Positions 6,376 to 36,617 of a stretch of 64,000 nt of DNA are shown in pieces (within the stretch, counting starts at the first letter, position 1; every line of letters starts with the position of its first letter). Under the pieces are notes generated by a model. That model searched no databases, was not told the origin of the DNA, and saw only the letters and a program-made list of their open reading frames with translations. The stretch covers positions 1 through 64,000 of IMG/VR virus record IMGVR_UViG_3300017989_000071; one strand, given 5' to 3'. The position numbers were made by a program, and so were the translations under genes. This DNA comes from a virus.

Positions 6376-6996
6376 TTATGGGACTTGCGCCCCGGAGAAC
6401 ACATCTTCGTCCACTTCCGCGAACGACTCCACAACCTGATCGGCGTAAGCAAAAAACTTGACCTCCTCCCAGAACCCGATGGGCGGGAAGTATTGGTCGC
6501 CGGTCGCCGGAGCAACCGCGAAAACGCCGCGAAGTGGAATCGCGTCTTGGTAGCTGTAAGAAACCAGAATCGCGGCCAGATTGTCGGGGGCGGCGGGGTA
6601 GGTGATCGCCGCATCCCCGGTATAGTAGTCGATAGTCCCGACTTCATCTTCGCCGATGTAGAGCTTGCCGGTCCCCCGATCCTCGGCCACCACGGTCTCG
6701 CCACCCACATCCGTACTGATCCGAACGCTGAATGGCAGCACCGACGTTTCGGCCAAAGTAAACTCGAAAGCGGTCTCCGCATCGTCGCCCGCCTCGCCGG
6801 TATCCTCATCGACCACGGCGGTCCCGTTTATCACCACTCCGTTCTTGACCATCGAGAGCAGGACGTTCGGTACGCCCGTGCGGTCCTCGCGGAGCACCTG
6901 CCCCACCCGCAAGGCGGTCGGACGCTCACTCTCGACGAAGCTGAACAGGAGCTTCGCCCGCTCGGGTTCGAGACTGCGAAATACCCTGCTGCTCAT
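6376..6996 (-). CDS. Virion structural protein, paralogue of 5471-6142
   Basis: INGTAVVDEDTGEAG vs VNGTLVEDEDTTKAG; VLPFSVRI...GTIDYYTG module; IPLRG vs IPLNG. Confidence 0.7.
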   Translation of the reverse strand: MSSRVFRSLEPERAKLLFSFVESERPTALRVGQVLREDRTGVPNVLLSMVKNGVVINGTAVVDEDTGEAGDDAETAFEFTLAETSVLPFSVRISTDVGGETVVAEDRGTGKLYIGEDEVGTIDYYTGDAAITYPAAPDNLAAILVSYSYQDAIPLRGVFAVAPATGDQYFPPIGFWEEVKFFAYADQVVESFAEVDEDVFSGAQVP

Positions 6997-17762: not shown

Positions 17763-17774
17763 GATCGTCCCTTA

Positions 17775-22217: not shown

Positions 22218-23036
22218 TCACCTCCCCACCTTGTAGATTTTCGGCTGCTTCGGGGCGTAGGTGCGCTTCCGCACCGTAAACGTCCCGTCGTCGAAAATCC
22301 GGATCAGGACGCCCCCCAACTGCGAGACCGACATCGGAGCCTTCTTGTAGACCCATCCCGTCTTGACCTGCCATGCCGGAAGCGTCACCAGTGCCCGACC
22401 TCCCTCCAGCTCGGTAAACGTGTACCGGTGCCGGTGAGATCGAACCTGAAGATCGGGCTGCTTCCACCCCACCCGTCCGTACTCGATGGACTGTGCGGTG
22501 AGCTGCCCTTGGGGAGCCGAGACATCGGTGTGGGGCTGGCCCGTCCCGATGTGGTGGGTGAAGTGAATATGCACCCCACCCACTTCGAGGTTCAACTCGT
22601 AGAAACTGTTCGATCCGGTTTCCTCGTTCAACCGCGCCCCGAGGTGCCAAGCGAGGAAGTCTTCATCCTTCCCTTCGTCACCCACATGGGAGTCGGTGCC
22701 ACGAACCACGAAGAATGCCTTCGCCTTCTCGGCCAGCGGTCGGATCACCGCATCGACCATCTTGACGTGATCCTTCGTGTTCGTCGAGATCAGCTGGGTC
22801 TTCCGATGATGGACTCCCTCGATCAGGTCGCCGTTGGTAACGAGCGTGTAGGGCTGACCCTCCAACTCCTTCGGCAACCACTTCGTGTTGAAGTCTCGCC
22901 AGCATCGGTTGATCCACTGCTGAATCTTATTGGGCCGGTATCGTCCTCCATCATCCAATCGGAACTCGGGGCACAAGGCTGTCACCGAGCCAAGATGAAG
23001 GTCCGAGATGACCAGCACATTCTCTGTGACTTTCAT
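22218..23036 (-). CDS. Calcineurin-like metallophosphoesterase
   Basis: SDLH, NGDLIEG, RGTDSH, HH and SHRH motifs. Confidence 0.85.
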   Translation of the reverse strand: MKVTENVLVISDLHLGSVTALCPEFRLDDGGRYRPNKIQQWINRCWRDFNTKWLPKELEGQPYTLVTNGDLIEGVHHRKTQLISTNTKDHVKMVDAVIRPLAEKAKAFFVVRGTDSHVGDEGKDEDFLAWHLGARLNEETGSNSFYELNLEVGGVHIHFTHHIGTGQPHTDVSAPQGQLTAQSIEYGRVGWKQPDLQVRSHRHRYTFTELEGGRALVTLPAWQVKTGWVYKKAPMSVSQLGGVLIRIFDDGTFTVRKRTYAPKQPKIYKVGR

Positions 23037-24059: not shown

Positions 24060-24419
24060 TCACGCCTCCCACATCGACGGATGGCAATCACGGACCGAGT
24101 GGAACCATGCTTCAATCGCGGCGAGCCACAGGTCGGGATCGTGCTCGCTCCAAATCTCGATTCGTCCCCTGCGATAGTCCACCTTTCCCCCCGGATGATA
24201 CACGTCCCCCACGATTGAGGAATTGCCATCGTCCGTCGCGAAGAACCCACCCTGTTCGGGGGGCACCTGTAGGGAGAGCGAGCCGGGCCGAATCTCACCC
24301 CCCACCTCGGCAATCAGATAGCGCAACTCCGGTCTCCCTAGAATCCCATCCACCTTACCCTTCTCGACAAGCCGAACGCCGCACCACCCCCGCAGATAAT
24401 TTCTCGTTGTTCGGTCCAT
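24060..24419 (-). CDS. Stand-alone copy of a virion PGS...DDG...GxVDY module
   Basis: EIRPGSLSL...TDDGNSSI...GGKVDYRRGRIEI parallels the module in 5471-6142 and 6376-6996. Confidence 0.55.
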   Translation of the reverse strand: MDRTTRNYLRGWCGVRLVEKGKVDGILGRPELRYLIAEVGGEIRPGSLSLQVPPEQGGFFATDDGNSSIVGDVYHPGGKVDYRRGRIEIWSEHDPDLWLAAIEAWFHSVRDCHPSMWEA

Positions 24420-24434
24420 CTCACCCTTCTCCTT

Positions 24435-24701
24435 TTAGCCATCTCCCGTGATCCGCATGACCTGCTCCTTGATCGACTGATCCACCTCCGTCGGGGTAGG
24501 CCGAACCGGGAACGATCCCTCCTCCCCATGCAGGAAGATCGCGGCCTTGCAATCGCGAAACCGATCCTTCTCCCTCAGCGTCGTCGGGATGTCTTCCGCC
24601 GGGTAGTACCGCGTAACCGCCTTGATCTGCGTCGGGTCGAAAAACTGCCCGTCCACCTCCACCGTCAGGTAGACCGGCGGGCCTGTCAAATAGGTATACA
24701 T
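24435..24701 (-). CDS. Hypothetical protein (FlbD-like pattern)
   Basis: FFDPTQIKAV...IFL...PTPTEV. Confidence 0.6.
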   Translation of the reverse strand: MYTYLTGPPVYLTVEVDGQFFDPTQIKAVTRYYPAEDIPTTLREKDRFRDCKAAIFLHGEEGSFPVRPTPTEVDQSIKEQVMRITGDG

Positions 24702-24730
24702 ACCTTCTCCTTATTCATACTCCTCGTCTC

Positions 24731-25102
24731 CTATCCGTTATCCGGCTCTCCATAAACCGCGATCCGATCTTCCACCGAATCAATCGCGGATCGAATGAGC
24801 TGTTCCCGGAGCTCCGCCCCGTCCGTCCGGTTCGGATACGTGCATCCCAGCTCCCGCTTGATCTCGCGGATCACTTTCGCAAACATCCGGGCATCCACAA
24901 CCGCCTCGTCAAGTCTGCCTTGCGTCTCCAAACGCCGCACGATCTCCGCCCCCTTCGCGGCGGACTCTTCCCATCGCTTCGGGTCCATCCCATCACTCAT
25001 CGCTCTTCTCCCGTTCACACACATGTTATTGCACCCCACCGCGAGCTGAATCAGCTCCCGCTCCTGTTTCCGCGTAATCCTGACCATCGACGCCTTGCTC
25101 AT
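24731..25102 (-). CDS. Hypothetical helical protein
   Basis: Tightly packed minus-strand ORF. Confidence 0.65.
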   Translation of the reverse strand: MSKASMVRITRKQERELIQLAVGCNNMCVNGRRAMSDGMDPKRWEESAAKGAEIVRRLETQGRLDEAVVDARMFAKVIREIKRELGCTYPNRTDGAELREQLIRSAIDSVEDRIAVYGEPDNG

Positions 25103-25573
25103 CTATCGAAGCCCGTCGAGATTCAGCTGCATGTTCCCGATCAGATAAGCCATCCGCGTATCGCGCAAGCTCCGAGCATACGCGATCACCGCCTTCCGGG
25201 TCTCCGACATCACCCGTGACCGCAGCAAAAGCTCGACGTTACACGGATCGATCCACGGCGTCGCGAAGACGTGCTCCCCCTTCGCCAGATAGCTCTCCTC
25301 CGAGGGGCATCCGACATTGCGGTCCCCCCACCACCGCAGCGTCACGATCCCATCGTCGTCGTACTCCACCCGAGCTGTGATCCGGCACAGCTCCCAAAAC
25401 TCGGCATCCCGCAGATCGTCGCCTCGCATCTTCGCCGCCGTGTCCCACGTCCGGGGTCTCATATTCCCACCGTTGATGCTGTCCATCGTCGTGTCGAGGA
25501 AAACCCGCATCCGCCCCCACCACTCGCTCACCGGCTCAGCGTAAACCCGCCGAATCATCCGCTCACCCTTCAT
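25103..25573 (-). CDS. Hypothetical protein (C-terminus weakly neck-protein-like)
   Basis: Overlap-coupled ORF; ends YARSLRDTRMAYLIGNMQLNLDGLR. Confidence 0.6.
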   Translation of the reverse strand: MKGERMIRRVYAEPVSEWWGRMRVFLDTTMDSINGGNMRPRTWDTAAKMRGDDLRDAEFWELCRITARVEYDDDGIVTLRWWGDRNVGCPSEESYLAKGEHVFATPWIDPCNVELLLRSRVMSETRKAVIAYARSLRDTRMAYLIGNMQLNLDGLR

Positions 25574-25971
25574 CCCTCTTCATCCTCCTTGACAGGAACC
25601 GCCTCAATCGAGAACGATTCGAGCTCCAGATCGGTCACCACCCCGCCCTCGACCGTACCGCTCCCAATGGTATAGCCCCGCGCCCCGAGACGACCCTCCT
25701 GTATCGCGGCGAAGAGCTCCTTCAATTCCCTGCTCTTCGGCGTGTCGGGCAGCAACTCCAGATCGACCTCGATCACCCCCTCCTTGAAATCGGCGCGGGT
25801 AACGAGATGCGTCACGTCCTGAAGATTCCCCAGCATCTCACGATTCCTGATCCGCTCCTGAAACTTCGGGTCGTTGACGGCCTTCTCCAGCACCTCGGGG
25901 GGATACACCCTCCCATTGCGCCTTCCCATCTCATCCGCCGGAATCGTCACCGCGATCTTGCGCTTATCCAC
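25570..25971 (-). CDS. Degenerate T4 gp21-like prohead protease lacking catalytic His and Ser
   Basis: RNGRVYPPEVLEKAVND matches gp21 RNKRLYPKRILEKAVKD; GELNHP becomes GNLQD; VSSRG becomes ARGYT; GTG start at 25971. Confidence 0.75.
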   Translation of the reverse strand: MDKRKIAVTIPADEMGRRNGRVYPPEVLEKAVNDPKFQERIRNREMLGNLQDVTHLVTRADFKEGVIEVDLELLPDTPKSRELKELFAAIQEGRLGARGYTIGSGTVEGGVVTDLELESFSIEAVPVKEDEEG

Positions 25972-26179
25972 CTTCCCGCTCCTGCGCATGAAAATGCTTG
26001 TACTCCTCCCAATCCCGAAAGAGCTGGTTGAACGCCCCCTCGCTGATCTCGTGCCGTTGCCCGTAGATGTGGACATGGAACGCCCGCTCCTCCATCTCCA
26101 AAAACTGAACGTCCTCGATGGCGATATAGAAGCACCCCGGCGTGCGCGGCTTATCGACTCGCAATACACCTATGGCCAT
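25964..26179 (-). CDS. Hypothetical protein, 71 aa
   Basis: GGAGG RBS; overlap-coupled. Confidence 0.6.
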   Translation of the reverse strand: MAIGVLRVDKPRTPGCFYIAIEDVQFLEMEERAFHVHIYGQRHEISEGAFNQLFRDWEEYKHFHAQEREGG

Positions 26180-26529
26180 CACATACCTCCTGTCTTCGCA
26201 TCGAGGGTATCGCAAGCGGTCTCCAGCTCCCGATCCTCGTCGTCTCCGGGTTGCGAAGAGACCCGCATGTTCCACTTCCCAACCGCCGTAACCACCAGCT
26301 CGGACAACACCTGAAGGAGGCGCATCTGGTAATCCGAGGGGTTAGGCAGCGCGGGAGCCACGACCTGCAAATCGCACTTCGGGCACACCACCGAGCCAAC
26401 GAACTCCATCCCCGCTCCATTGCTCCTCCACCCGGAGCGGATTTCGGGTCCCGCGCCGCAGCACGGGCAGGGAGCCGCCGACACCCTCAGCTGGAACTTA
26501 CTGACCGGAAACGTCAAATCTCCTAGCAT
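26179..26529 (-). CDS. Lar-like zinc-ribbon protein
   Basis: APCPCCG...VVCPKC spacing resembles the Lar restriction-alleviation family. Confidence 0.55.
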   Translation of the reverse strand: MLGDLTFPVSKFQLRVSAAPCPCCGAGPEIRSGWRSNGAGMEFVGSVVCPKCDLQVVAPALPNPSDYQMRLLQVLSELVVTAVGKWNMRVSSQPGDDEDRELETACDTLDAKTGGM

Positions 26530-26822
26530 CCCGTTACCTCCTTCGGTTTGGATTCTATTTCGGAAGTCTCGATCACGATGTAATGCACCGTGTCGCCCGA
26601 CCCCACCTCCTCGCCCATCCGATGATGAACGCGAATCCGGGCATCGCACTTCGGGCACTCCCACATCTCGAACAGGTACGCCTGCCTGCTCCGCAACGTT
26701 CCGAGAAACAGCTCCTCGAAGGTCTTCGCAAGCCGACCCGATCCGCACTCCGGGCACATCCCGGTCCGGTTCATCCACCGCTCGTAACGGTCTCGGGCCT
26801 GATCGCCGTCAAGGAGCCGCAT
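26523..26822 (-). CDS. Zinc-ribbon protein (YgiT/MqsA-N-like spacing)
   Basis: MCPECGSG...WECPKC. Confidence 0.55.
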   Translation of the reverse strand: MRLLDGDQARDRYERWMNRTGMCPECGSGRLAKTFEELFLGTLRSRQAYLFEMWECPKCDARIRVHHRMGEEVGSGDTVHYIVIETSEIESKPKEVTGC

Positions 26823-27219
26823 GGGTCTCTGTATCCTCTTCGTCCCCTTCCGGGCCGTAGAACGCATCGTGGACCCGCCGCTTCAGCCGCTCCGCGAGCT
26901 CGTTATCGTTGCAGCGGTTCAGCTCGTCGATCATGTCGATAACCTCGTTGTAGATCATCTCCCGCGCCGTAACGATTCCTTCCACCTCTTCCTCAACCGA
27001 CTTCAACGCCTTCTCCCGATCCGCGATCACCGAGTACAGATGCTTGATCTCCTCGGCCTGTTGATTGACCAAACAGCTCGTCCCCTGCCGCAACTCGCCG
27101 GGAAACCGGTCCCCGCTCCGATGCGTCCCACAGACATAGACTACTCCGTGCTCCCGCTTCGACATCGCACTCGGGTCCAGCGGCGAACCGCAGAGTGGAC
27201 ACGTCGTTCCTTTCATCAT
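26809..27219 (-). CDS. Cys-module plus coiled-coil protein
   Basis: CPLCG...CGT...CL module shared with 35895-36554, followed by a coiled coil. Confidence 0.65.
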   Translation of the reverse strand: MMKGTTCPLCGSPLDPSAMSKREHGVVYVCGTHRSGDRFPGELRQGTSCLVNQQAEEIKHLYSVIADREKALKSVEEEVEGIVTAREMIYNEVIDMIDELNRCNDNELAERLKRRVHDAFYGPEGDEEDTETHAAP

Positions 27220-27419
27220 CCTCGTCTTCCTTCCCCGGTCGGGAACCCGGCCTGTTCCCACAGCTCCTCGACCAGATAATTATCGCCGGTCAGCTGGCCG
27301 ACGGAATACTCGAATCCTTTATCCTCCACCGACAAGACCTGAGCCTGCAACCGCGCCGACTCCAGCGAGGACGCCCACGCCGCGATCTGATCCCCCCGAA
27401 TGACGAAATACCGATTCAC
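27216..27419 (-). CDS. Hypothetical protein, 67 aa
   Basis: GTG start overlapping the upstream stop (GTGA). Confidence 0.55.
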   Translation of the reverse strand: MNRYFVIRGDQIAAWASSLESARLQAQVLSVEDKGFEYSVGQLTGDNYLVEELWEQAGFPTGEGRRG

Positions 27420-28192
27420 TCGGGTTCCCTCCCTCGCACCGTTTCCAATACCAGCCGCTCGGCCCATGACTCGACATCCTTCGGAGCCATCGGCGTAGCC
27501 TGCTTCATCTTCGCCGCCAGATTCACGGCGAGCTCGCGCAACTTCTCCATCCCCGGAGACGGACGAAGCAGCATTTTTCCCCCCGCATGGTAAGCAGGAG
27601 TAAACTCGTTCGTCCGCCCACACAACGGACACTCGCTGTGAACAGTCATCAGCTCCGAGCGCGGCCCAAGGTCTTCGGCGACCAACGGGAACCCACATTC
27701 CCAGCACGAAAAATGATGAACCCGTAGCACCCGATCCGCAACCAACTGCATCGTCCTCATTCGAGGTTGAAACTGGTCGGTAAGACCGCATGGAAACGCA
27801 CCGAGAAACAGGTAACCCCGCAACACCTCGGAACCGAGAACGAGCACGTTCCGCTTGTAGCTCGCCGCCGTGCCGGTCACCTGATCGAACCAGAAACCCA
27901 GCCACTCGGCAACCTGAGTGTCGTCGCACGGAACCGAGAAATCCAACCGGGCCGCCTCGCGATCCTCCCAAACCGGGAACCCGTTAGGATCGGGAACCAG
28001 CACTTTCACATACTTCGGGGGAATACCGAGCAAACGGCGAAACACCCCTCTCGGAGAGGGCTGCATCTCGTACCGAAACCGCTCCCCGTAATGATTCGGC
28101 AGACGATACCCGCCGCGCTGGACGAGAAACCTCCCCAACGCCCTCGGCGTATCGCCGTAGACCACAACCTCGCACAACCTGTCCTCGCTCAT
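27416..28192 (-). CDS. Protein with tail-tube (gp19-like) segment and C-terminal Zn ribbon
   Basis: QVAEW...QVTG...YKRNV...FLGAFP...QLVADR echoes the gp19 tube C-terminal half; CWEC/CPLC follows. Confidence 0.5.
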   Translation of the reverse strand: MSEDRLCEVVVYGDTPRALGRFLVQRGGYRLPNHYGERFRYEMQPSPRGVFRRLLGIPPKYVKVLVPDPNGFPVWEDREAARLDFSVPCDDTQVAEWLGFWFDQVTGTAASYKRNVLVLGSEVLRGYLFLGAFPCGLTDQFQPRMRTMQLVADRVLRVHHFSCWECGFPLVAEDLGPRSELMTVHSECPLCGRTNEFTPAYHAGGKMLLRPSPGMEKLRELAVNLAAKMKQATPMAPKDVESWAERLVLETVRGREPE

Positions 28193-28620
28193 TGCAACTC
28201 CTCCTGCGCTGGCGCAGATTTACCGTTTTCGTTCTTACCGTTCCTCTTCCCGTGCCCCCGCCTCTTCCACAACCCCTCGGCCATCGCGTGAAGCAGGTTA
28301 CCGTTCCCCTTCAGCCATTCGAGGTTCGAGAGGCGAGTGTTGTCCTTGTTCCCGTCCTTGTGGTTGACGACGATATACTGATCGGGGTGATCGAGCTCCG
28401 GGGCGGGAAGGAACGTCTCGGCAACCAGCACATGACATCCCACCTTGCGCTCCCTCCCGCTGTCCCGGAGTGTCCAGTAGGGGTATCCGTTCCCCGACTT
28501 CCATCGTTTGAGCTCCTTGATCTTCCCGTTCTTGTACTGCTTCCACAGATGCCCGTGATCGCTCACGTAGTACCTCGGCCAGTCCTTCACCGACCGGAAG
28601 GTCACCGTCAGATCACTCAT
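28189..28620 (-). CDS. NUMOD4-HNH homing endonuclease (free-standing)
   Basis: YYVSDHG, GYPYWTL, HVLVAETF and VNHKDGNKDNTRLSNLEW. Confidence 0.9.
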   Translation of the reverse strand: MSDLTVTFRSVKDWPRYYVSDHGHLWKQYKNGKIKELKRWKSGNGYPYWTLRDSGRERKVGCHVLVAETFLPAPELDHPDQYIVVNHKDGNKDNTRLSNLEWLKGNGNLLHAMAEGLWKRRGHGKRNGKNENGKSAPAQEELQ

Positions 28621-28864
28621 CGTTCACCATCCTGAGCAACACATCCCCATGACAGGGCTTCGGAGCGCACCAGCAACCCAACACCTTCCCCCGCAACTCC
28701 GAGAGCGAAGCCATCAACTCGGGCTGGGTCTTGACCCACTCTTCATACTTCTCGATCACCTCCCGGCGGGTACCGTCCTTGCCAATCTCGAAGGGATTCC
28801 CCCACTTCGAGGAGCGACCAATGTAAACGTCGTAATCGTCTCGTTTGCAATGAACAACGCGCAT
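28613..28864 (-). CDS. DUF4326 family protein
   Basis: VYIGR-x-SKWGNPF, LRGKVLGCWCAPKPCHGDVL. Confidence 0.9.
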   Translation of the reverse strand: MRVVHCKRDDYDVYIGRSSKWGNPFEIGKDGTRREVIEKYEEWVKTQPELMASLSELRGKVLGCWCAPKPCHGDVLLRMVNDE

Positions 28865-28869
28865 CCCGA

Positions 28870-29139
28870 TCACCCCTTCAAAAACCACCAGAACCGTTGT
28901 CTCGCCTCAGCAACGTGGGCCTTCCACCGCGCAATCACATCCGCGTTCTCCCCATCGCACTTCTCGCAAACCGTCACGTTTACCGTATCACCACTGTACA
29001 CCCACCTCCATTGATCCCCCGGCTGAAAACGATGTCCGCACAGCATACAGCGAAACCGCTCCCCGTTCGGAGCACCACCCCACGAGAGGGTACATTCCTC
29101 GGCAGTCGCAATCCGTGGCTTCTGATCGGTGAAACTCAT
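28870..29139 (-). CDS. Small zinc-binding protein
   Basis: FRCMLCG...VCEKC. Confidence 0.65.
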   Translation of the reverse strand: MSFTDQKPRIATAEECTLSWGGAPNGERFRCMLCGHRFQPGDQWRWVYSGDTVNVTVCEKCDGENADVIARWKAHVAEARQRFWWFLKG

Positions 29140-29462
29140 AATGGCTCCCTCGACGGATTGACCAACGACTCCGACCCGTCCAACTCCCGCGCCCGCCCGT
29201 TCTTAATCGCCGTCAATGCCGCCTCGGCGACCTTCGACCTGTCCTCAAGGATTTCGCCGTTCTCTCCTCCCCCGCAGCATTTGAATACCTGAACCAGCAC
29301 CACCTCCTCGGGCAACCCGGCAGGGAGATCGTCGCCCTTGAACTCCTCCTCCATATCCGAGCAATCACCGTACCCCTCATGCCAATCGTCGTGGCAGCTG
29401 GAGCAACACCTCCAGCCCCACTTCTCGAAATCACTGCAATAGAGGCGGACATACTTGCTCAA
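29136..29462 (-). CDS. Cys-containing hypothetical protein
   Basis: TTG start overlapping the upstream TGA; CCSSCH...KCC. Confidence 0.55.
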   Translation of the reverse strand: MSKYVRLYCSDFEKWGWRCCSSCHDDWHEGYGDCSDMEEEFKGDDLPAGLPEEVVLVQVFKCCGGGENGEILEDRSKVAEAALTAIKNGRARELDGSESLVNPSREPL

Positions 29463-29728
29463 GTTATATCCTCCGGGCCGTCGCGTTTGGCTTCCTTCTC
29501 CCACACCATCAGGAGGAACGCACCCATCCGGCGAACCTCTTCGAGGGTCTGAACCTCCAATGCCAACGACTCCCCCTGAAAGAAGGCGAAGTGATCCCCT
29601 GCCGGATTGCACTCTGCCGACAGGGAATCGTCCTTGGTCTTGTAGAACATCGCCATCGGAGCCTCTTCGATCTCCTCACGCTCGAAGGAAATCGGCTCCG
29701 GTTCGGGTGTCTTCTTCTTCGCCGTCAT
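29459..29728 (-). CDS. Hypothetical protein
   Basis: Packed ORF with phage-like codon pattern. Confidence 0.65.
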   Translation of the reverse strand: MTAKKKTPEPEPISFEREEIEEAPMAMFYKTKDDSLSAECNPAGDHFAFFQGESLALEVQTLEEVRRMGAFLLMVWEKEAKRDGPEDIT

Positions 29729-29732
29729 CGGA

Positions 29733-30116
29733 CTACTCGTCGTCCTTACACGCCGCCATGTTCCGCTCGACCGCCGAAATCGCCGCGACGCCGATGCGGG
29801 TCTGCGCCTCTTCCCGCGCCAACTGCCCTTCGAGGGCGGCGCGGGCGATCAGGACCACGTAGTTATCGGTGGACACCTCGGCCAGCGAACGGAGATCGTC
29901 TTCCGACCACAGCCGGAAAGGCACGTGCTCCACGGCCCACCCCACCGCGTTCCGCCGTTCCTCGAAGAGAGCCTTCAGGGAAACGAACCGGTGGATCGTC
30001 GCCACCTCCGAGCACCCCCGAGACGCCCCGCACTCGGAAGCGATCTTCTTGATGCGGCGGTGCCACTCCATATCATCGGCGTGAAACGCCCAATCGTGAT
30101 TCTGCTCTTCGTTCAT
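29733..30116 (-). CDS. Hypothetical helical protein
   Basis: AAGGAG RBS. Confidence 0.65.
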   Translation of the reverse strand: MNEEQNHDWAFHADDMEWHRRIKKIASECGASRGCSEVATIHRFVSLKALFEERRNAVGWAVEHVPFRLWSEDDLRSLAEVSTDNYVVLIARAALEGQLAREEAQTRIGVAAISAVERNMAACKDDE

Positions 30117-30119
30117 TCG

Positions 30120-31343
30120 TTACTCCTTTTCATAATCCAGATTCGTAACCGTAATCGGAAACGGCCCCTCGACAACCGAAGGCCGTGGCCGACGATCCAG
30201 CCTCGTAACTTTTCGATTCCGCTTCCCGTAAACAAACTCGGTGAAATAGATACTACCGGGAACGATCTGCCTCATCGGTTGAACACTGACCAGCTCCCGC
30301 GCACGTAGATCAGGTAACGCCGCCCGAACCAGTGAAAACGCCAAACGGCGAAACGTACCCCGGTCAAAAACCGGAGAATCGAGACTCGTTACCGGCGACA
30401 CCCTGATCCCCACCTCCTCGTAGAACTCCGCATTCTGAGGGGTGATCGAGAAGTCCATCGAAATCGACTCCGGCACGATCCTCGGCGCGACATCCACCTT
30501 GATCCGCTTCGGATAATTCTCGATGTCCACCTCACGGACATGCACACCGGGGCGAGACGGCCTCGGCGACCCCGAAAACACGTTGTCGTAAAACGCCTGC
30601 AACCGCGCCCGCGCCGTCTCGTTATCCGTTTCGTCGAAAATCAAATGATCGTTGGCATTCTTCACCACACCTTTAGCATGATGAAGTAACCGGCGGACGT
30701 TCACTCGATCAAGGGTCGTCACGGGGCTAGAATCAAACCGCGTAACAGGCCGCACAATCCGGTCTCTCCGAACACCCAGCTGCGGAATGTCCGCCTCGTC
30801 CAGTATCGCCGACGACGCCTGAAAGAAACGCGGCTCGACCGTCTTCACCCCATACCACTCGGCGAACGACCACATCTTCCGCGCCTGACGCTGAGCACCC
30901 GGCGACAGGCCGCTCCGCTGATCCAGACACGTCGGAAACCCCCGGCGGTGGGGACGCCCCGGAACGCCGAACTCCTCGATGAGCTCCCGCTCGCTTCCGA
31001 TGAACTTCGGGGGTCGGAACACCGGCACGTAAGGGGCCACGAAGTACCCCGGATCGCGAGAAGCCTCTTTCCGAAAGTCAAACTTCGTAACCGGTCGGCA
31101 CTGAATCCCCAGCCGCAAGCTCTCGGACAGCGCAGCGGGAAGACCATCAAAACTCGCCTCGATGTCCTCAGCCGACTCTACGGTCCACTCCGCTCGCAGT
31201 CGATTCTTGTGAATCTGCGACTGGATCGCCCGAGAAATTCCGATGCCCTTGTAGACCGGCTCCGACCGAACCTCGATCAGCTCCGTCGCATCGCCGGAGA
31301 TATTGACCTCGCCGGTATCGAGGTTGACGTAGGCTTCGCTCAC
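30120..31343 (-). CDS. Chimeric protein built from major-capsid (gp23-like) and tail-sheath (gp18-like) fragments
   Basis: RLRAEWTVESAEDI, GYFVAPYVP and LVRAALPDLRARELVSVQPM...GSIYF (MCP motifs) flank LDRVNVRRL...IFDETD...PESISMDFSIT (sheath C-terminus). Confidence 0.75.
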   Translation of the reverse strand: MSEAYVNLDTGEVNISGDATELIEVRSEPVYKGIGISRAIQSQIHKNRLRAEWTVESAEDIEASFDGLPAALSESLRLGIQCRPVTKFDFRKEASRDPGYFVAPYVPVFRPPKFIGSERELIEEFGVPGRPHRRGFPTCLDQRSGLSPGAQRQARKMWSFAEWYGVKTVEPRFFQASSAILDEADIPQLGVRRDRIVRPVTRFDSSPVTTLDRVNVRRLLHHAKGVVKNANDHLIFDETDNETARARLQAFYDNVFSGSPRPSRPGVHVREVDIENYPKRIKVDVAPRIVPESISMDFSITPQNAEFYEEVGIRVSPVTSLDSPVFDRGTFRRLAFSLVRAALPDLRARELVSVQPMRQIVPGSIYFTEFVYGKRNRKVTRLDRRPRPSVVEGPFPITVTNLDYEKE

Positions 31344-31681
31344 CACACCCTCCTTCGCTTTTCGACATAATCGCCGTCGCATAAACGAAATTCTTTATTC
31401 CATTTCCAGCCGCGACGCTGTTTACCGATCCGAAAAAATCGAATACGACCGAGCACTTCGCCATCTTCCCAATAATCGGTAGCCAAGTAATACCCGATCT
31501 TCGATAGCCACGGATTCACCATAAGCTTGATGAGCGAACGATGCGCGACGATCTTGCCCGTCCGGTCCCGAACCACCCCGAGCGTATGCACATGGGACCA
31601 CCCGCCTGTATAGCGATACATCGCCACCGCGACAACGGCGAAGAACCCCAACGCCGCAATATCACGCCAACTACTCGCCAT
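31340..31681 (-). CDS. Membrane-anchored hypothetical protein
   Basis: N-terminal TM IAALGFFAVVAVAMY; GGAGGA RBS. Confidence 0.6.
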   Translation of the reverse strand: MASSWRDIAALGFFAVVAVAMYRYTGGWSHVHTLGVVRDRTGKIVAHRSLIKLMVNPWLSKIGYYLATDYWEDGEVLGRIRFFRIGKQRRGWKWNKEFRLCDGDYVEKRRRVW

Positions 31682-31779
31682 CGTTCTTCCTCCTATCCTT
31701 CTTCGGCTTCTTGCACTTACCGGCGGTCTCCGCACCCTGCATCTGAGAGACGCCGCGAACGGTAAATATCGGAAGCGGC

Positions 31780-32004
31780 CTATACACCGCCCGCACGTCC
31801 TTCTTCCTTCCCATCAGACTCTCCTTTTAATTTTCGGTCGATCTTCCACTTGATCGGCAGGGTAGCCAGCCAAACCGCCTTGTACCAGAGCCAGCGACCG
31901 ACCCACGCCGTGCGAGCCATCCCGTAGCGATCCTCGATGTGGAGCATCTTCCGGTTCCACCACACCTGAAACAGCATAAATGCTGTATTAAACTTTTTCC
32001 TCAT
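31780..32004 (-). CDS. Small Trp-rich protein
   Basis: Overlap-coupled ORF. Confidence 0.55.
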   Translation of the reverse strand: MRKKFNTAFMLFQVWWNRKMLHIEDRYGMARTAWVGRWLWYKAVWLATLPIKWKIDRKLKGESDGKEEGRAGGV

Positions 32005-32578
32005 CTTCCTGCTCCAGCCCCGCCTTGCGCTTCATCCGTCCAAGCTGAGCATTAAGCACAGCCCCCGAGCTTCGGATCGACTCAATCGTTGGGGACGGCG
32101 GACCGCCACTCTTCGCCAGCTTCGCCATCGCCACAGCCCACGCCTCGTGCAGCTCGGGGGAGACCCCGAAGCGACCCGAGGCGATCCGAATGATGAAAAA
32201 GTGCGCGAGCTCGTGGTACACGTAATCGTCCGACAGGTCGCAGAGATAGATTCTGATCGGCCCATCGCTGCTCGGGACCGTCATGCCGTACATGTCGTAG
32301 TGCCCGAGCGGGTTACCGAAATTCAGATTCAGCCAACCCCGACCGACGAGGTTGATCTCGACCCCTTCGTACTTGACCATCGTATGACCGTAGGCTGCCA
32401 TCCGGGTTGCGTGGATGAACCGCTCGAAGAGGATGTCGAGACGTTTGATGTACTTCTCCTTCATCCCCTGCGGGTACTTCACGGTGAAATAACGGGTCTT
32501 CATCGTCTCGGTCACCTCGCCGTTCGGAACCGCCCGCTCGATGCCGAAGACCTCCTTGAACCATTCCCAAACCCTCAT
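31988..32578 (-). CDS. Zincin-like metallopeptidase
   Basis: YVYHELAHFF plus downstream HEAWA. Confidence 0.65.
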   Translation of the reverse strand: MRVWEWFKEVFGIERAVPNGEVTETMKTRYFTVKYPQGMKEKYIKRLDILFERFIHATRMAAYGHTMVKYEGVEINLVGRGWLNLNFGNPLGHYDMYGMTVPSSDGPIRIYLCDLSDDYVYHELAHFFIIRIASGRFGVSPELHEAWAVAMAKLAKSGGPPSPTIESIRSSGAVLNAQLGRMKRKAGLEQEDEEKV

Positions 32579-32976
32579 CGCTTCGTCTCCCGGTCCACCT
32601 CGGAAAAGAACAGCCGCAGCAGCTCGGTCACCGCATCCTCTCCGAACTCCCACATCTGCGCCTCGGCCTCGCGGCTCCAATTCGCCCGCAGTCCCCGGCC
32701 CTGCATCTGACCCAACAGCGCATCCACCTTATCGTTTTTCTTCCCCATCACCGCTGACGAGAACTCGGCCTTCCACACCCCGATGTCGAACGCCTCGACA
32801 TTCACCGCCGGATTCGGCTCCGGAGCCGTCTCCCCGGCGACACGTTCCAACCCCGCGATGTTCACCGCCGGGATCGAACCGCACTTCGGGCACAGCAGCG
32901 TCCCGACATCATCGCCACATCCGGCGCAGGACACAACCCGCGCCACCGTACCGCACTGCGGACACTTAGCGTGCAT
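32575..32976 (-). CDS. Zinc-ribbon protein
   Basis: CPQC, CAGC and CPKC. Confidence 0.65.
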   Translation of the reverse strand: MHAKCPQCGTVARVVSCAGCGDDVGTLLCPKCGSIPAVNIAGLERVAGETAPEPNPAVNVEAFDIGVWKAEFSSAVMGKKNDKVDALLGQMQGRGLRANWSREAEAQMWEFGEDAVTELLRLFFSEVDRETKR

Positions 32977-33739
32977 GATAAGCTCCTATAATCGACTCGA
33001 TAGCCTGCATCTGATCCGCCGTCGGCATCGCAGTCTTCGGCCACGTGAATAACTTCGGGGGATGCCCCTCGTAAGGCAACCCAACCGGAACGACCATCTG
33101 ATCGGCCTTCGCCGCATGGTACAGGCGACGAAGGTTCTCGCGCAGCGCGGTCTCCAAACAATCCGCATCCCATGTGAAATTCTGGACCGCAGTAGAAAAC
33201 GAAATCGAGACCACCACACGTACCTTGCCACACAGGTCCGAAATCAGAATTTGTAAAGGGCGAAACCACATAATCGCATCCAAGAGCTGTTGGGGAGAAA
33301 CCTTGCCCTGCTCCTCCAATTCCCCTATAGACTTTTTGACCCAACTATCGAGATGTTTGAGGTAGTCGCGGGTATCGGATGGAGTGAAGACCGGGGCGTA
33401 ATCCACACACACCAGTCGGTTACCGATGTACCCGTAGTTATCCGGATTCTCGTCCTGCGCTACCGGAACGTCGGCGAAGAACTCCCGAACCCCGATCTCC
33501 TCCACCTCGGACTCGGAATGGAGAACACGATCCACCCTCCGCATCACGAGAAAAAGACCAAGAGGAGCGCAGAACAAAACCGGGCACAGCCTCTCGTCAA
33601 AGCCCGACCACAGCCGTTCGTCCATGTTCGCAACCATCCCGAGGCAGAAGCGTCTCCAGCCATGACCGAGATGGGGAAGCTTAATTGCCCATCGGCCAAC
33701 AAGGATTACAACCCTCGATGCACCGCTCGTAATCTTCAT
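32966..33739 (-). CDS. Minimal protein-kinase-like fold protein
   Basis: GASRVVILVGRWAIKLP (beta-3 Lys), DENPDNYG (catalytic loop) and LVCVDY (DFG-equivalent). Confidence 0.6.
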   Translation of the reverse strand: MKITSGASRVVILVGRWAIKLPHLGHGWRRFCLGMVANMDERLWSGFDERLCPVLFCAPLGLFLVMRRVDRVLHSESEVEEIGVREFFADVPVAQDENPDNYGYIGNRLVCVDYAPVFTPSDTRDYLKHLDSWVKKSIGELEEQGKVSPQQLLDAIMWFRPLQILISDLCGKVRVVVSISFSTAVQNFTWDADCLETALRENLRRLYHAAKADQMVVPVGLPYEGHPPKLFTWPKTAMPTADQMQAIESIIGAYHAR

Positions 33740-34011
33740 CCCTTGTCCTCTTTTTTCATCCGCCGCTCTTTTGCATCTTCGGCTGACGAGATATGCCACT
33801 CGCAATCCCCGTGCGCCGGGCAGTACCCTTCGCCGTCCTCCCCGCCCGGCTCGGGGCAGGGAACCTTGTATCCCGCCTCGCAGTGTATGATCGAGTCGCC
33901 GCAGCAACACGCCATCAGATCGTCGATCTCGCACCCACATTCCTCCCCGGCCAGACCGTCGTAATCGTTCTCGATCAGATACGCCTCGACAATCTCTTTC
34001 ACGCTAGGCAT
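33736..34011 (-). CDS. Cys-rich small protein
   Basis: YDGL...ECGC...DLMACCC...C. Confidence 0.65.
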   Translation of the reverse strand: MPSVKEIVEAYLIENDYDGLAGEECGCEIDDLMACCCGDSIIHCEAGYKVPCPEPGGEDGEGYCPAHGDCEWHISSAEDAKERRMKKEDKG

Positions 34012-34486
34012 CGCTGACTCCCTTCGTCCTCTCGGCCAGCAACCCCCTTCTGATCTCGGCACGATTGATCGGCGCGTCCGGATCGAGCTGCGGCTCGATC
34101 TCTCCGTGACTCGGCCAGAACCCTTCTCGGTCCGGGGTCCGGGAGGTAGGCGGATGAGGGTCGGCAGCAGCGTCGGGTGGGGGTTGGGAACCCGACGCTG
34201 AAGAGGGTGTGCCGTTTTTATCCGCCCACCTCCCGGCCTTGATGAGCTTCTTCAAACCCCGGCCTTGACGCGGACCTTGAAACCAACCCTTGTACGGCCA
34301 GAAGTGAAACTTATGGCCCTGCATCGTTCGGACCTCGAAGCTCTTGTCGTCGGGACCGGCCCCCACACGCCACCCCAGCTCTTCGAGCTCGCGCTTGGCG
34401 TTCTGCATCCGGCCATCCTCTTTCCGGCCCCGCCGCTGCCTCGCCTCACGGCGCATGAACCGGAAATCGTCTCCCATATCCCCCAC
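34004..34486 (-). CDS. Hypothetical phage protein
   Basis: MGDMGDDF...FWPYKGWF...GRG. Confidence 0.65.
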   Translation of the reverse strand: MGDMGDDFRFMRREARQRRGRKEDGRMQNAKRELEELGWRVGAGPDDKSFEVRTMQGHKFHFWPYKGWFQGPRQGRGLKKLIKAGRWADKNGTPSSASGSQPPPDAAADPHPPTSRTPDREGFWPSHGEIEPQLDPDAPINRAEIRRGLLAERTKGVSDA

Positions 34487-34488
34487 GG

Positions 34489-35103
34489 CTACTTCCCAAC
34501 CCCGAGATGTTCGGCGACGATCCCCGCAAGCGCATCCGCGACGACCTGCTCCTTCGGTCGTTTATCGAAGAAGCTGATGTACTCCAAATGCTTCTCGGCC
34601 TTCGGGGAAAGGACCAGACCTTGCGTCTGCTCACGAGCGCACAGCACGCAGGTCTCCTCACGGGTTTCCGGATGCCGGAAGGCCACCCACCCCTGCGACT
34701 CGCTGCGGTGATAACGCAGATGATGAAACGAATGCTTACCGTGGCGGCAGCATTCCGCTTTCGCCCAAAACAGCTCCAAGTCGGGGGAGATGCCGTACTC
34801 TTCGTAGATCGCCGCAATCGTCTCGGCGTCTATCATCCCCGCCTTTTCACGGCTATCCCCGGCCACCTCCCGCAGACAGAAAACGCACATCCGAGCACTC
34901 AGGTAGTAAACCGAACGCTCGCCGAAACGATGCGACTCATCGTCGCAAGGAATATCGTAGACCAGCTTCGTCCCCTTCTTGACCCAATCGAGCTCGGGGG
35001 GATACTCACTCCGGCGGATCACCTCCTCGCTCATCGGCTGCGACTTGGGGATCGCTTTCCCCTTCGGGTTCGTCCGTAACGGTGTCGGTTTCGCTGTCTC
35101 CAT
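34489..35103 (-). CDS. Protein with two C-x-x-G/H...RY...CV-x-C repeats
   Basis: CDDESHRFGERSVYYLSARMCVFC and CCRHGKH...RY...TCVLC; start uncertain. Confidence 0.65.
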   Translation of the reverse strand: METAKPTPLRTNPKGKAIPKSQPMSEEVIRRSEYPPELDWVKKGTKLVYDIPCDDESHRFGERSVYYLSARMCVFCLREVAGDSREKAGMIDAETIAAIYEEYGISPDLELFWAKAECCRHGKHSFHHLRYHRSESQGWVAFRHPETREETCVLCAREQTQGLVLSPKAEKHLEYISFFDKRPKEQVVADALAGIVAEHLGVGK

Positions 35104-35443
35104 TTTTCGGTTCCTTCTTGCAAGTCATGTGTAACGTGAATGGTTCCACGGTCTCGATCCCACTGTCCTTGACCGAGACCGGGTACATCGAATCAGGGTC
35201 GATCCATTCCCGGATCAGCAGCTCCCGGATGCACGAGGGCCGCCCGCATGTCGTATACTCCAGACCACCGGAACGCCGAAGAACCACCCGGTTACCGGAT
35301 GCGAGGATCGGCATCCCACAGATTTCGCACCGCTCGGGACAGAGAGCCATTTTCAGCGTCTCCAACCACCTCAGAAGGCTCCGAGGTAGGGCCAAGCCCT
35401 CCGGACCGCTCACGGCCCCGCTCCTTTGCGATTTTGGGGTCAT
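35006..35443 (-). CDS. Zinc-binding hypothetical protein
   Basis: CEICG...CGRPSC; overlaps the next gene. Confidence 0.5.
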   Translation of the reverse strand: MTPKSQRSGAVSGPEGLALPRSLLRWLETLKMALCPERCEICGMPILASGNRVVLRRSGGLEYTTCGRPSCIRELLIREWIDPDSMYPVSVKDSGIETVEPFTLHMTCKKEPKNGDSETDTVTDEPEGESDPQVAADERGGDPPE

Positions 35444-35601
35444 TTGGACTTCTTCCGGGGTGCCCGAGGCACCTGTCCGGTGCCGTTGCAGATTCGGCAG
35501 CACGCGAGGGGCCGCTCCCAGCCCTTACCCGGAACGAAGGTCTGCTTCTGGGGGTCCGGCTCCCGGCCAGTCCCCTTACAGGTCGGACACTTCTTTTTCA
35601 A
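35440..35601 (-). CDS. Stand-alone DnaJ-type zinc finger, 53 aa
   Basis: CPTCKGTG and CRICNGTG; TTG start overlapping the upstream stop. Confidence 0.65.
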   Translation of the reverse strand: MKKKCPTCKGTGREPDPQKQTFVPGKGWERPLACCRICNGTGQVPRAPRKKSK

Positions 35602-35885
35602 CGCTGTTCCCACTCGAACTCCTCCTCTCCGGTAACGACCGCCTCGTGAAGCGGCCCGTCTTGGAGATTGTTCTGATCCCACACCCACTTCGTGACGTAC
35701 CCCGAGAAACGATCCCCCTCGATCCGCACGTCTTCCGTCTGCGACTTCGGAACCCACGTCGCCCGGCCCTCCTCCCGGTCCACGTCGTCGGCCTTACCGC
35801 CCTCGATCCCAATCAAGTAGGCCAGCGGCGACTCGTAGAACAGGTGAGCGTCAGTCACTTCCCAATATGCTTTCATCCTCGGCAA
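35598..35885 (-). CDS. Hypothetical protein (WVPKSQ-type small beta-barrel)
   Basis: ESPLAYL...WVPKSQ...W. Confidence 0.65.
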   Translation of the reverse strand: MPRMKAYWEVTDAHLFYESPLAYLIGIEGGKADDVDREEGRATWVPKSQTEDVRIEGDRFSGYVTKWVWDQNNLQDGPLHEAVVTGEEEFEWEQR

Positions 35886-35894
35886 GGTATCCTC

Positions 35895-36554
35895 CTATCC
35901 GTATGCGTAGCCATCGATTTTAATGTGGACCAGCGGAATGTGGTGAAGCCGGTGATCGTCGATCTTGAAAATTCGCCCACAAGGTTCGATGCTCCCCGTC
36001 GGAAGACCCGACAGCAGCGAATCGTTCACCGGCCAGACCTCGCAACCGATGCACCCCTGATGAAGCTCCCCAAGTCCGGGAAGCAAGGGGAACGGCCCGA
36101 AGACGCCGACACAACGAACCCCCAGCGGAGATTGGTGGTCTTCCGTGGGGTCCGAATTGTGTATCGCGATCCCGGCAAACGTGGTATGCTCCACACCGCG
36201 CCAGTAAGGCACATACGCCCCGGTCCCGATATAGCGACCGACGAGGTTCCCCTGAAAAATCTGAACACCCTCGCGGACGTAACCCGAGGAGTGCGACCCC
36301 GCTTCCCACTTCCGCTCCTGACCGGCCTTCGCCGGTTCGGGCATGAACACCGCATCGGGGTCCATCGGCCCGTTGACCAGCTCCGTTTCGAGTAGACATC
36401 GGTTGGAAGGAATCGGGAGGCGTTCGTGATTGTTGCCCTGTATCGTATGTATCGTACCGCACTTGAACTGGCGACCGAACAGGCGCGAGGCCACCGCCAC
36501 TCCCGCACCGCACAGCGGGCATCGCTCGGAAGGTTGATCGTCGAAAGGATTCAT
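35895..36554 (-). CDS. Cys-module fused to a head cement/decoration-like (Mu gp35/DUF2190-like) domain
   Basis: VQIFQGNLV...GAYVP...FAGIA...VRCVGVF...IGCEVWPVND...CGRIFKID...VHIKI; first gene after a sigma70 promoter. Confidence 0.5.
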   Translation of the reverse strand: MNPFDDQPSERCPLCGAGVAVASRLFGRQFKCGTIHTIQGNNHERLPIPSNRCLLETELVNGPMDPDAVFMPEPAKAGQERKWEAGSHSSGYVREGVQIFQGNLVGRYIGTGAYVPYWRGVEHTTFAGIAIHNSDPTEDHQSPLGVRCVGVFGPFPLLPGLGELHQGCIGCEVWPVNDSLLSGLPTGSIEPCGRIFKIDDHRLHHIPLVHIKIDGYAYG

Positions 36555-36589: not shown

Positions 36590-36617
36590 ATTATACACCG
36601 ATTCAAGTACGTGTCAA
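36590..36617 (-). promoter_or_regulatory. sigma70-type promoter
   Basis: TTGACA (36617-36612), 16-nt spacer, TATAAT (36595-36590). Confidence 0.85.

Follow-up and report, generated by a model that had tools for sequence, protein, structure and literature searches.

An orphan-gene region of a T4-type myovirus holds genes apparently made from diverged, scrambled or dead pieces of virion proteins

Results and discussion

The window analysed here is the first 64 kb of the 117,644-bp viral record IMGVR_UViG_3300017989_000071 (~91% complete, GC content ~59%, almost all genes on the minus strand). It begins with late tail genes (0.5-22 kb), continues with a region filled with small orphan genes (22-39 kb) and then enters a region of replication genes (helicase, methyltransferase, SbcCD, DNA polymerase). 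Within the orphan region, between positions 24,060 and 36,554, we identified at least four open reading frames (ORFs), named here by their lower coordinate (ORF 30120, ORF 25570, ORF 24060 and ORF 32575; Table 1), which, judging from their sequences, are orphan genes derived from diverged, scrambled or catalytically dead pieces from the major capsid protein (MCP), the tail sheath protein and the prohead protease. A preliminary description of this DNA had proposed that at least five ORFs of the region are degenerate mimics of virion proteins rather than working structural genes, and the latter point is borne out by the location of the true MCP, sheath, tube and portal genes, which were all found at 83-117 kb of the record.

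Proteins identical to those of this phage are encoded also on contigs of 128.8-129.2 kb (maximum 129,202 bp), and four studies, with five metagenome runs from sediment or seawater between them, yielded the sequence; the phage is a novel ~129-kb high-GC T4-type myovirus of sediment and seawater. Its MCP is of the gp23 type, with the best cultured relatives (Listeria phage LIS04, Bacillus phages SP-15 and HSE3, and Maribacter phage Colly_1) being only 29-35% identical. MCP P0002, from a further relative, is 59% identical overall and 75% over the columns covered by the pieces described below. Megablast and tblastn searches against phages, together with searches of IMG/VR using the MCP and the DNA polymerase, revealed no DNA or protein relatives of the region.

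Table 1. Features of the orphan region and related loci of the record (SD, Shine-Dalgarno site; x and dots in motifs stand for variable positions)
Feature	Coordinates	Strand	Remarks
ORF 30120, 407-aa orphan chimera	30120-31343	minus	GTG start, strong SD; alternative ATG at 31382
Piece 1 of ORF 30120	31083-31208	minus	MCP aa ~254-295: LRAxWTVE strand and start of spine helix (T4 gp23 265-280)
Piece 2a of ORF 30120	31008-31076	minus	MCP aa 417-439, GYxxAPYVP motif (T4 gp23 445-454)
Piece 2b of ORF 30120	30804-30896	minus	C-terminal end of MCP, aa ~442-473, YGxKxV...FF; weak alone
Piece 3 of ORF 30120	30417-30719	minus	last ~110 aa of sheath, C-terminal domain with LDRVNVRR (own sheath 394-501; T4 gp18 542-657)
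Piece 4 of ORF 30120, C-terminus	30123-30359	minus	MCP aa 82-148, AFxLVRAxxPxLxAxELVSVQPM (T4 gp23 98-133, Gol peptide region)
ORF 25570, 133-aa prohead-protease (S77/gp21-like) domain	25570-25971	minus	GTG start, SD
ORF 24060, 119 aa	24060-24419	minus	aa 41-88 (24156-24299) similar to MCP insertion-domain motif RPGS...DDGNxxIVGD...G.VDYRxG
ORF 32575, 133 aa	32575-32976	minus	zinc ribbon and MCP spine-helix motif; absent from the preliminary description
ORF 27416, 258 aa	27416-28192	minus	CxxC...CxxC zinc ribbon (27575-27715)
ORF 35895, 219 aa	35895-36554	minus	first ORF after the promoter; SD AAGGAG; N-terminal CxxC zinc knuckle
Sigma70-type promoter	36590-36617	minus	TTGACA-16-TATAAT, 12/12 consensus
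HNH homing-type endonuclease	28189-28620	minus	PHROG 59, E-value 1e-27; Pfam HNH_3; context, no mimic
Late proteins with the insertion-region domain	5471-6142, 6376-6996, 86841-91199, 93706-96015, 98090-99502		
True portal	82.7-84.6 kb		structural gene outside the window
Head-tail module	104-117 kb		
True tube	108337-108852		
True sheath	108888-110408		
True MCP	115486-116928		

ORF 30120: a scrambled chimera of capsid and sheath pieces

ORF 30120 had been described as containing capsid and sheath pieces, and this was borne out by independent comparisons. An intragenomic all-against-all BLAST search related its aa 342-420 to the phage's own MCP (aa 82-148, 39% identity, E-value 5e-8) and its aa 222-322 to the phage's own sheath (aa 394-501, 30% identity, E-value 3e-7); here and below, the residue numbers quoted for pieces of ORF 30120 refer to the longer frame 30120-31382. 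The Pfam model Gp23 (PF07068) matched the C-terminal piece with 25.2 bits (cut-off 24.4), covering model positions 3-44 of 376, and local profile hidden Markov models (HMMs), which were scored among the 32 ORFs of the stretch and for which the best reversed-sequence controls reached 0.14-0.6, identified the relationship to the MCP (E-value 5e-17) and to the sheath (E-value 1.4e-4). Among 1.84 billion representative proteins, ORF 30120 retrieved itself and six MCPs, all matching aa ~338-408. The second member of its cluster, like that of the ORF 25570 cluster, reveals only an M/V difference at the GTG start. A frame-blind tblastn search with all proteins encoded outside the stretch reported the MCP and sheath pieces of ORF 30120, in the frame of the ORF, as the only strong matches, and no out-of-frame remnants.

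Two further MCP motifs were found on the N-terminal side, LRAEWTVE.A.D (aa 61-76) and D.GY..APYVP (aa 110-122), along with a weaker match to the C-terminal end of the MCP (aa 163-193); the N-terminal-side motifs align with several unrelated MCPs at homologous positions. The pieces thus follow one another in the order MCP-middle, MCP-C-terminal, sheath-C-terminal and MCP-N-terminal, all in one frame, and the last of them (piece 4) corresponds to the most conserved motif of the MCP family. Only ~160 of 480 MCP residues are represented, in a non-collinear arrangement, and a collinear, full-length HK97-fold domain is absent; the sheath matches are confined to the last ~110 residues, with none to the N-terminal or middle domains of the sheath. 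Because its pieces are partial and scrambled, we regard the product of ORF 30120 as a chimera predicted to be incapable of forming either the HK97 fold or a sheath subunit. The single-sequence AlphaFold2 model of ORF 30120 has a pLDDT (predicted local distance difference test) of 32, and a complex prediction for ORF 30120 and the phage's own MCP was uninformative (score 0.00). An origin as cargo of a homing endonuclease was considered and rejected, as the intron in the MCP gene of SP-15 displays no link to the piece boundaries.

ORF 25570: a prohead-protease domain without its catalytic residues

The proposed resemblance of ORF 25570 to a prohead protease is supported by several comparisons: the PHROG 31489 family (head maturation protease) matched it with an E-value of 6e-6, its top PDB sequence match was T4 gp21 (5JBL), and a local S77 HMM, built from T4 gp21 and three protease-scaffold fusions, reported it with an E-value of 1e-6 (best reversed control: 0.14). 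The Pfam S77 model (PF03420) gave 18.9 bits (E-value 1e-3), which is below its cut-off of 27. ORF 25570 is the sole S77-like stretch in the record, and its alignment spans the domain core (T4 residues ~50-165).

Two elements of the active site are altered. The His-bearing loop (GE.[ND]HP; GELNHP in T4), of ~15 or more residues, is deleted between codons 48 and 49 (25827/25828), and the Ser motif G[VI]S[SI]RG, common to all four aligned proteases, is replaced by LGARG, with both Ser positions substituted. His85 and Ser140 of T4 gp21 (the latter within GVSSRG), which we take to be the catalytic residues, occupy positions that are invariant among the four proteases aligned, and this supports their catalytic role. 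Because the His loop is absent and the Ser motif replaced, ORF 25570 is predicted to encode a catalytically dead protease domain, which would make a ready probe for binding partners of prohead proteases.

The true protease probably falls just outside the record: the sequence upstream of the MCP gene (116997-117644) contains a scaffold-like frame, acidic and basic in character, which is still open where the record stops, and in LIS04, HSE3 and Colly_1 a protease-scaffold fusion gene lies directly upstream of the MCP gene. A pattern scan of metagenome contigs for the continuation past the record end found nothing.

A strain variant from one sediment run, present at ~3x the depth of the reference, has only 24725-26096 in common with it and carries different flanks. 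In this variant the dead-protease gene and its SD are intact, with no single-nucleotide polymorphisms in its 402 nt vs 7 in two neighbouring ORFs, and a single in-frame insertion of 21 nt, located precisely where the His loop is missing, contributes SIGGELG and no His. As separate observations, the same variant has 15 nt in place of 238 nt within ORF 25103-25573 and lacks 81 nt of the leader that precedes ORF 25570; three other runs suggest a possible skip of 1098 nt (25493 to 26592), one side of which rests on just 22 letters. Altogether, indels and replacements between strains are concentrated at 24725-26600, which is thus a hot spot.

Smaller ORFs with virion-protein motifs

ORF 24060 had been taken for a sheath- or baseplate-type module. 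Its description as a piece of a virion protein stands, with the piece being a motif from the insertion domain of the MCP (hhalign P-value 2.5e-6, HMM E-value 7e-6, with five MCPs matching at the same position). A domain of this type (DDG.G..VG...G.IDY.TG) recurs in five late tail-fibre-like proteins (Table 1), one of which, of 1452 aa, holds three copies of the insertion-region domain of the MCP. Because of this occurrence in late tail-fibre-like proteins, the insertion-region domain is best described as a promiscuous domain of structural proteins, of which the MCP copy appears nearest to ORF 24060. One small domain is, in other words, common to the capsid shell and to tail appendages.

ORF 32575 combines a double zinc ribbon (aa 3-35, 32872-32970; matches to Zn_ribbon_3 and DZR) with the strand and spine-helix motif of the MCP, LRANWSxEA...GED...EL...EVDRE (aa 92-130, 32587-32703). 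The MCP HMM reported it with an E-value of 3.4e-3, whereas the best reversed control reached 0.21, and hhalign gave a P-value of 1.3e-4 (probability 54%). The match is short (39 columns) yet clearly above the controls, and we include ORF 32575 among the ORFs with a predicted MCP-derived piece.

For the remaining two ORFs of the preliminary description the proposed homologies found no backing in profile searches. ORF 27416, suggested to be a tail tube (gp19-like, PHROG 4542/45), has no PHROG, Pfam or PDB match; its pairwise comparison with the tube yielded an E-value of 1.5 and local tube HMMs gave 0.15-1.2, and the best of these alignments (E-value 0.15) comprises only a 30-aa G.AA.YKR...G.FP motif (27791-27880), which aligns to the tube's most conserved motif. 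A similarity of its N-terminus to a 67-aa late ORF was dropped as too weak, and a match of the protease HMM at 28009-28188 was rejected, being in the wrong frame and Arg-rich. ORF 35895, suggested to be a head cement protein, matches no Pfam family even at an E-value of 5 and no PHROG family, and PF09956 was found nowhere in the genome. Its last ~137 aa (aa 83-219) have structural neighbours in the ESM-Atlas that include DUF2190/Phage_cement_2 clusters (template-modelling scores of the cement-linked rows: 0.48-0.53 by query, 0.63-0.79 by hit), while its single-sequence AlphaFold2 model has a pLDDT of 35. The C-terminal part of ORF 35895 is possibly decoration- or cement-like, which we note as a structural lead only.

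Profile homology was obtained for three of the five ORFs named initially (30120, 25570 and 24060), and the term "arsenal" used for them overstates the case because the tube-like and the cement-like member lack such support. For these two, the similarities are at noise level (E-value 0.15 for ORF 27416), and the shortness of the ORF 32575 match likewise suits an explanation by chance or composition. For the first three ORFs, chance similarity and assembly artefact are essentially refuted and overall we judge them highly improbable: E-values of 1e-6 to 1e-17 stand against reversed controls of 0.14 or worse, the independent libraries Pfam, PHROG and PDB name the same families, and the region shows no more than 3 differences in contigs obtained by four studies.

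Operon context and expression

The consensus sigma70 promoter reported upstream of these ORFs was confirmed. It faces the operon that contains them and is the final such promoter ahead of the late tail genes. All 15 near-consensus sigma70 sites of the genome, 5 of which match at 12/12 positions, have minus-strand orientation. The non-structural part, at 36.6-80.8 kb, contains 14 of them, at 36617 and 45342-80761; the single site elsewhere (10/12) is at 108.4 kb (108362). The T4-type late promoter motif TATAAATA is absent genome-wide, and no late motif could be defined. Because a host-type promoter lies upstream, the operon is probably early, and the ~14-kb run of small genes below the promoter plausibly forms one early unit.

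The ORFs named initially are intact and tightly packed, in line with the mostly coupled arrangement that had been claimed: an SD is present at all five, and neighbouring genes of the operon abut or overlap by 4-8 nt. The coding signal resides on the minus-strand ORFs of the stretch, whereas the overlapping plus-strand ORFs lack it, and gene callers place GTG starts at two ORFs (31343 and 25971). The other genes of the operon are ordinary accessory genes, encoding an HNH endonuclease, DUF4326, SLOG/YAcAr, MazG, a nucleoside 2-deoxyribosyltransferase-like protein and several zinc-ribbon proteins.

The promoter bears on the possibility that the pieces are docking tags, which would attach the proteins to the prohead core, the shell or the sheath as minor virion components or as packaged and injected proteins, much as the internal proteins of T4 enter the capsid via a capsid-targeting sequence. 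In T4, gp21 co-assembles with the scaffold core, and a dead gp21-like domain could do the same; moreover, the T4 protein gp61.1, discussed below, covers the maturation-cleavage region of gp23. We nevertheless find docking distinctly unlikely, as the ORFs lie behind a sigma70-type promoter in a non-structural region of a genome in which no late-promoter motif is definable, and as the MCP pieces are internal elements of the fold and not terminal targeting peptides.

Several further features of the surroundings deserve mention in their own right. The HNH endonuclease gene overlaps a stand-alone DUF4326 gene by 8 nt (28189-28888), and ORF 27416 starts 4 nt inside the stop of the HNH gene; the idea that ORF 28613-28888 is a fragment of a larger NrdA-like PHROG was rejected, since it comprises a complete stand-alone DUF4326 domain. 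Small zinc-ribbon proteins are unusually dense at 26179-36554 (ORFs 35895, 32575, 28870, 27416, 26809 and the Lar-like 26179), and two of them combine the ribbon with a virion-protein-like part. At the end of the operon, a 272-aa ORF (22218-23036) exhibits two weak, partial matches to exonuclease PHROGs that are out of order (aa 5-87 align with profile positions 131-205, and aa 93-140 with 15-62), and it may be a further shuffled derivative, in this case of a non-structural gene. Outside the operon, two adjoining late paralogues of 669 and 689 aa (15753-19844) are 49% identical over their full length, with no PHROG family for either, and a single 1106-aa ORF (53359-56679) has, by profile matching, an SbcD-like part (aa 1-302) and an SbcC-like part (aa 331-1103) and is an apparent SbcD-SbcC fusion.

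Maintained genes or relics

Every segment of ORF 30120, including the linkers, exhibits coding-type codon usage in the frame of the ORF only. In comparisons of the pieces with their parents, the identity at third codon positions is at chance (0.33-0.36), vs 0.54-0.67 at positions 1 and 2, and all four pieces, the three junctions and several internal indels are in frame. Because synonymous sites are saturated and the pieces nevertheless keep their frame, they look selected rather than decaying, which favours real, maintained genes over debris; the neutral evolution that had been named as telling against a function is therefore not what the core ORFs display. Real genes are likewise favoured by the strong SD sites, by the recurrence of the sequence in contigs of 5 runs and by the strain variant, with its intact dead-protease gene. 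In the MCP pieces, near-invariant columns are kept at 35 of 59 positions and the other columns match the commonest residue in 31% of cases; ELVSVQPM is kept at all 8 positions, and the N-motif at 12 of 16 near-invariant residues.

The pieces are 30-34% identical to all MCPs of the subgroup, while those MCPs are 44-51% identical to each other over the same columns. An origin within the phage's own lineage was rejected, with only 2 of 41 own-clade-specific columns being shared with the pieces. As the pieces are about equally distant from all subgroup MCPs, they appear to be long-branch copies, which arose either by duplication, being old or evolving fast, or by capture from a donor that is unsampled. 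From the sequence it is clear that ORF 30120 is a new gene, put together from shuffled parts of two structural genes that are unrelated, and long kept open, and as such it is informative about the origins of phage orphan genes even if the functional interpretation given below is wrong.

A different possibility is that the pieces are non-functional relics, i.e. fragments of the structural genes of a distant phage that were acquired lately and are open by luck. The equal distance from all sampled MCPs fits an unsampled donor, stop codons are rarer at high GC, and no polymorphism was seen in ORF 30120 that would allow constraint to be tested. We consider such relics improbable in view of the 407-codon open frame with four pieces and indels in frame, the linkers with the coding signature of this genome's codon usage, the strong SD sites and compact coupling, and the lack of out-of-frame fragments in the tblastn search; useless DNA is, besides, quickly purged from phage genomes.

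A more serious competitor, which we still deem somewhat unlikely, is that new genes arose from the debris of recombination: illegitimate recombination or template switching would have shuffled parts of a head-tail module, duplicated or foreign, into an early region that is plastic, and the resulting proteins may be expressed and useful, with motifs that are historical and functions unrelated to the resemblance. The scrambled, non-collinear order of the pieces suggests such a history, as do the strain-level hot spot at 24.7-26.6 kb, with its indels and replacements, the HNH endonuclease in the region, the lower codon adaptation of the ORFs, the orphan status of proteins without any family and the unconfident single-sequence folds. 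What debris explains less well is that the residues kept are preferentially those invariant in MCPs (as in ELVSVQPM and the N-motif) though the remaining fold is missing, that the MCP strand and spine-helix motif is present twice, in different proteins, and that the dead protease retains a whole domain core, which is no random fragment. An early gene of T4, too, encodes a free-standing piece of the MCP.

Possible mimicry of conserved surfaces of virion proteins

The best single explanation, which we favour tentatively and rate at somewhat short of even, is that the proteins mimic conserved surfaces of virion proteins. They would display the most conserved peptides and interfaces of these proteins to the normal binders before the late proteins appear: the Gol-type N-motif and the strand and spine-helix motif of the MCP, the C-terminal domain of the sheath and the core of the protease. 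The partners may be host factors or immune sensors, with the mimics blocking a sensor or EF-Tu, or they may be assembling head or tail subunits of the same or a co-infecting phage, with the mimics interfering with or regulating assembly; taken separately, each of these two versions seems to us unlikely, and about equally so.

We rate mimicry highest because the elements kept are the most conserved ones of each parent and stand outside their native folds, because the Gol peptide provides a precedent for autonomous action of such an element, and because defence systems sense core virion proteins. Within gp23, conservation is highest in the Gol region, and a free 29-residue peptide from it binds EF-Tu (PMC3014915). 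The complex in which Avs7 senses the MCP includes EF-Tu, and many defence families sense core proteins, among them the MCP, tube and portal (bioRxiv 10.64898/2026.01.04.697583), while the prohead protease of T1 has been named in a review as a cue of CBASS (PMC13728456).

Several observations weigh against mimicry. Two of the five claimed mimics are unsupported. The pieces lie no nearer to the MCP of this phage than to the other subgroup MCPs, which would be compatible with a recent capture from an unsampled, distant donor, and invariant residues would be expected to persist shortly after a capture as well. No homologues of the four proteins were detected in 5.8 billion clusters or 1.84 billion representatives, and a search for short proteins carrying the MCP N-motif gave nothing. 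The codon adaptation of the putative mimic ORFs is 0.12-0.26 vs 0.3-0.56 for most neighbours, with the exception of ORF 32575 (0.44). From the mechanistic side, a protein that simply reproduces what triggers a sensor, for instance the Gol peptide, should activate the sensor and not block it, so that a decoy would need to bind the sensor without activating it; dominant-negative subunits, the other function proposed initially, should damage the phage's own assembly too.

The most specific version of mimicry would be a dedicated set of early self-mimics, a new class of weapon in which non-assembling copies of conserved, least mutable elements, namely the Gol-type peptide and spine-helix strand of the MCP, the handshake domain of the sheath and the protease core, jam the pattern-recognition defences of the host (saturating MCP/EF-Tu sensing of the Lit or Avs7 type and protease-sensing CBASS) or poison the assembly of competitors. 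We regard such a set as rather unlikely. If it exists, the strategy may be widespread, given the capsid-piece copy in T4 gp61.1. Bacterial immunity senses the capsid, tube, portal and protease, which phages cannot easily mutate, and early look-alikes that counter this sensing would constitute a general, hitherto undescribed counter-strategy and would provide a function for a class of orphan early genes that includes T4 gp61.1.

Comparison with known systems

The closest parallel that we identified is in T4 itself. Residues 2-38 of gp61.1, a 54-aa protein encoded beside the primase gene, are similar to aa 57-93 of gp23 (46% identity, E-value 6e-9), a segment that spans the maturation cleavage site; gp61.1 is annotated only as hypothetical, and we found no paper describing its likeness to the capsid protein. 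Like the ORFs described here, it is a free-standing, diverged capsid piece in an early gene, separate from the true MCP gene; ORFs 30120, 24060 and 32575 are all orphan ORFs of the non-structural region with an MCP segment, in a genome that has its true MCP elsewhere. In contrast to them, gp61.1 comprises a single short, unscrambled piece without sheath or protease parts, and it copies the cleavage region instead of motifs of the Gol type, the spine helix or the C-terminus.

In ORF 30120, the C-terminal piece corresponds to the region of gp23 that contains the Gol peptide, presumably residues ~93-122, and invites comparison with the Gol/EF-Tu/Lit system. In T4, Gol is part of a real capsid protein and triggers a suicide protease of the host, whereas here a diverged copy would form the C-terminal end of an early chimera. 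The T4 vertex protein gp24 is likewise a diverged extra copy of the MCP in the same genome, but it is a full-length, collinear, late protein with the HK97 fold, while ORF 30120 carries its partial set of MCP residues out of order and fused to a sheath piece.

In keeping the fold core without the catalytic residues, ORF 25570 bears what is a hallmark of pseudoenzymes that regulate or compete with their active counterparts, and it may be compared with pseudo-proteases in this respect. T4 encodes a dedicated inhibitor of gp21, annotated as Inh, which, unlike ORF 25570, is no homologue of gp21.

The satellite proteins Sid, CpmB and Ccm act on capsid assembly by binding or imitating parts of the capsid or the scaffold. 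They are, however, encoded by satellites and aimed at the helper phage, and Ccm is a whole HK97-fold protein without shuffled fragments. The concept of a phage protein that counters a sensor of virion proteins, as put forward in the preliminary description, is common to sensor-blocking anti-defence proteins such as DSAD1, which is not known to be derived from the tube protein. DSAD1 is a phage antagonist of the tail-tube sensor DSR2 (PMC11087589).

We have not filed these ORFs as members of the MCP (PF07068, PHROG 138), sheath (PHROG 23) or S77 families, because defining features of each family were tested for and found to be lacking. Their sequences set the present case apart from the systems listed above in that pieces of three parents (MCP, sheath and protease) appear in one operon, together with a scrambled multi-piece chimera, and it represents a variant of a barely characterised kind, the free capsid-piece genes.

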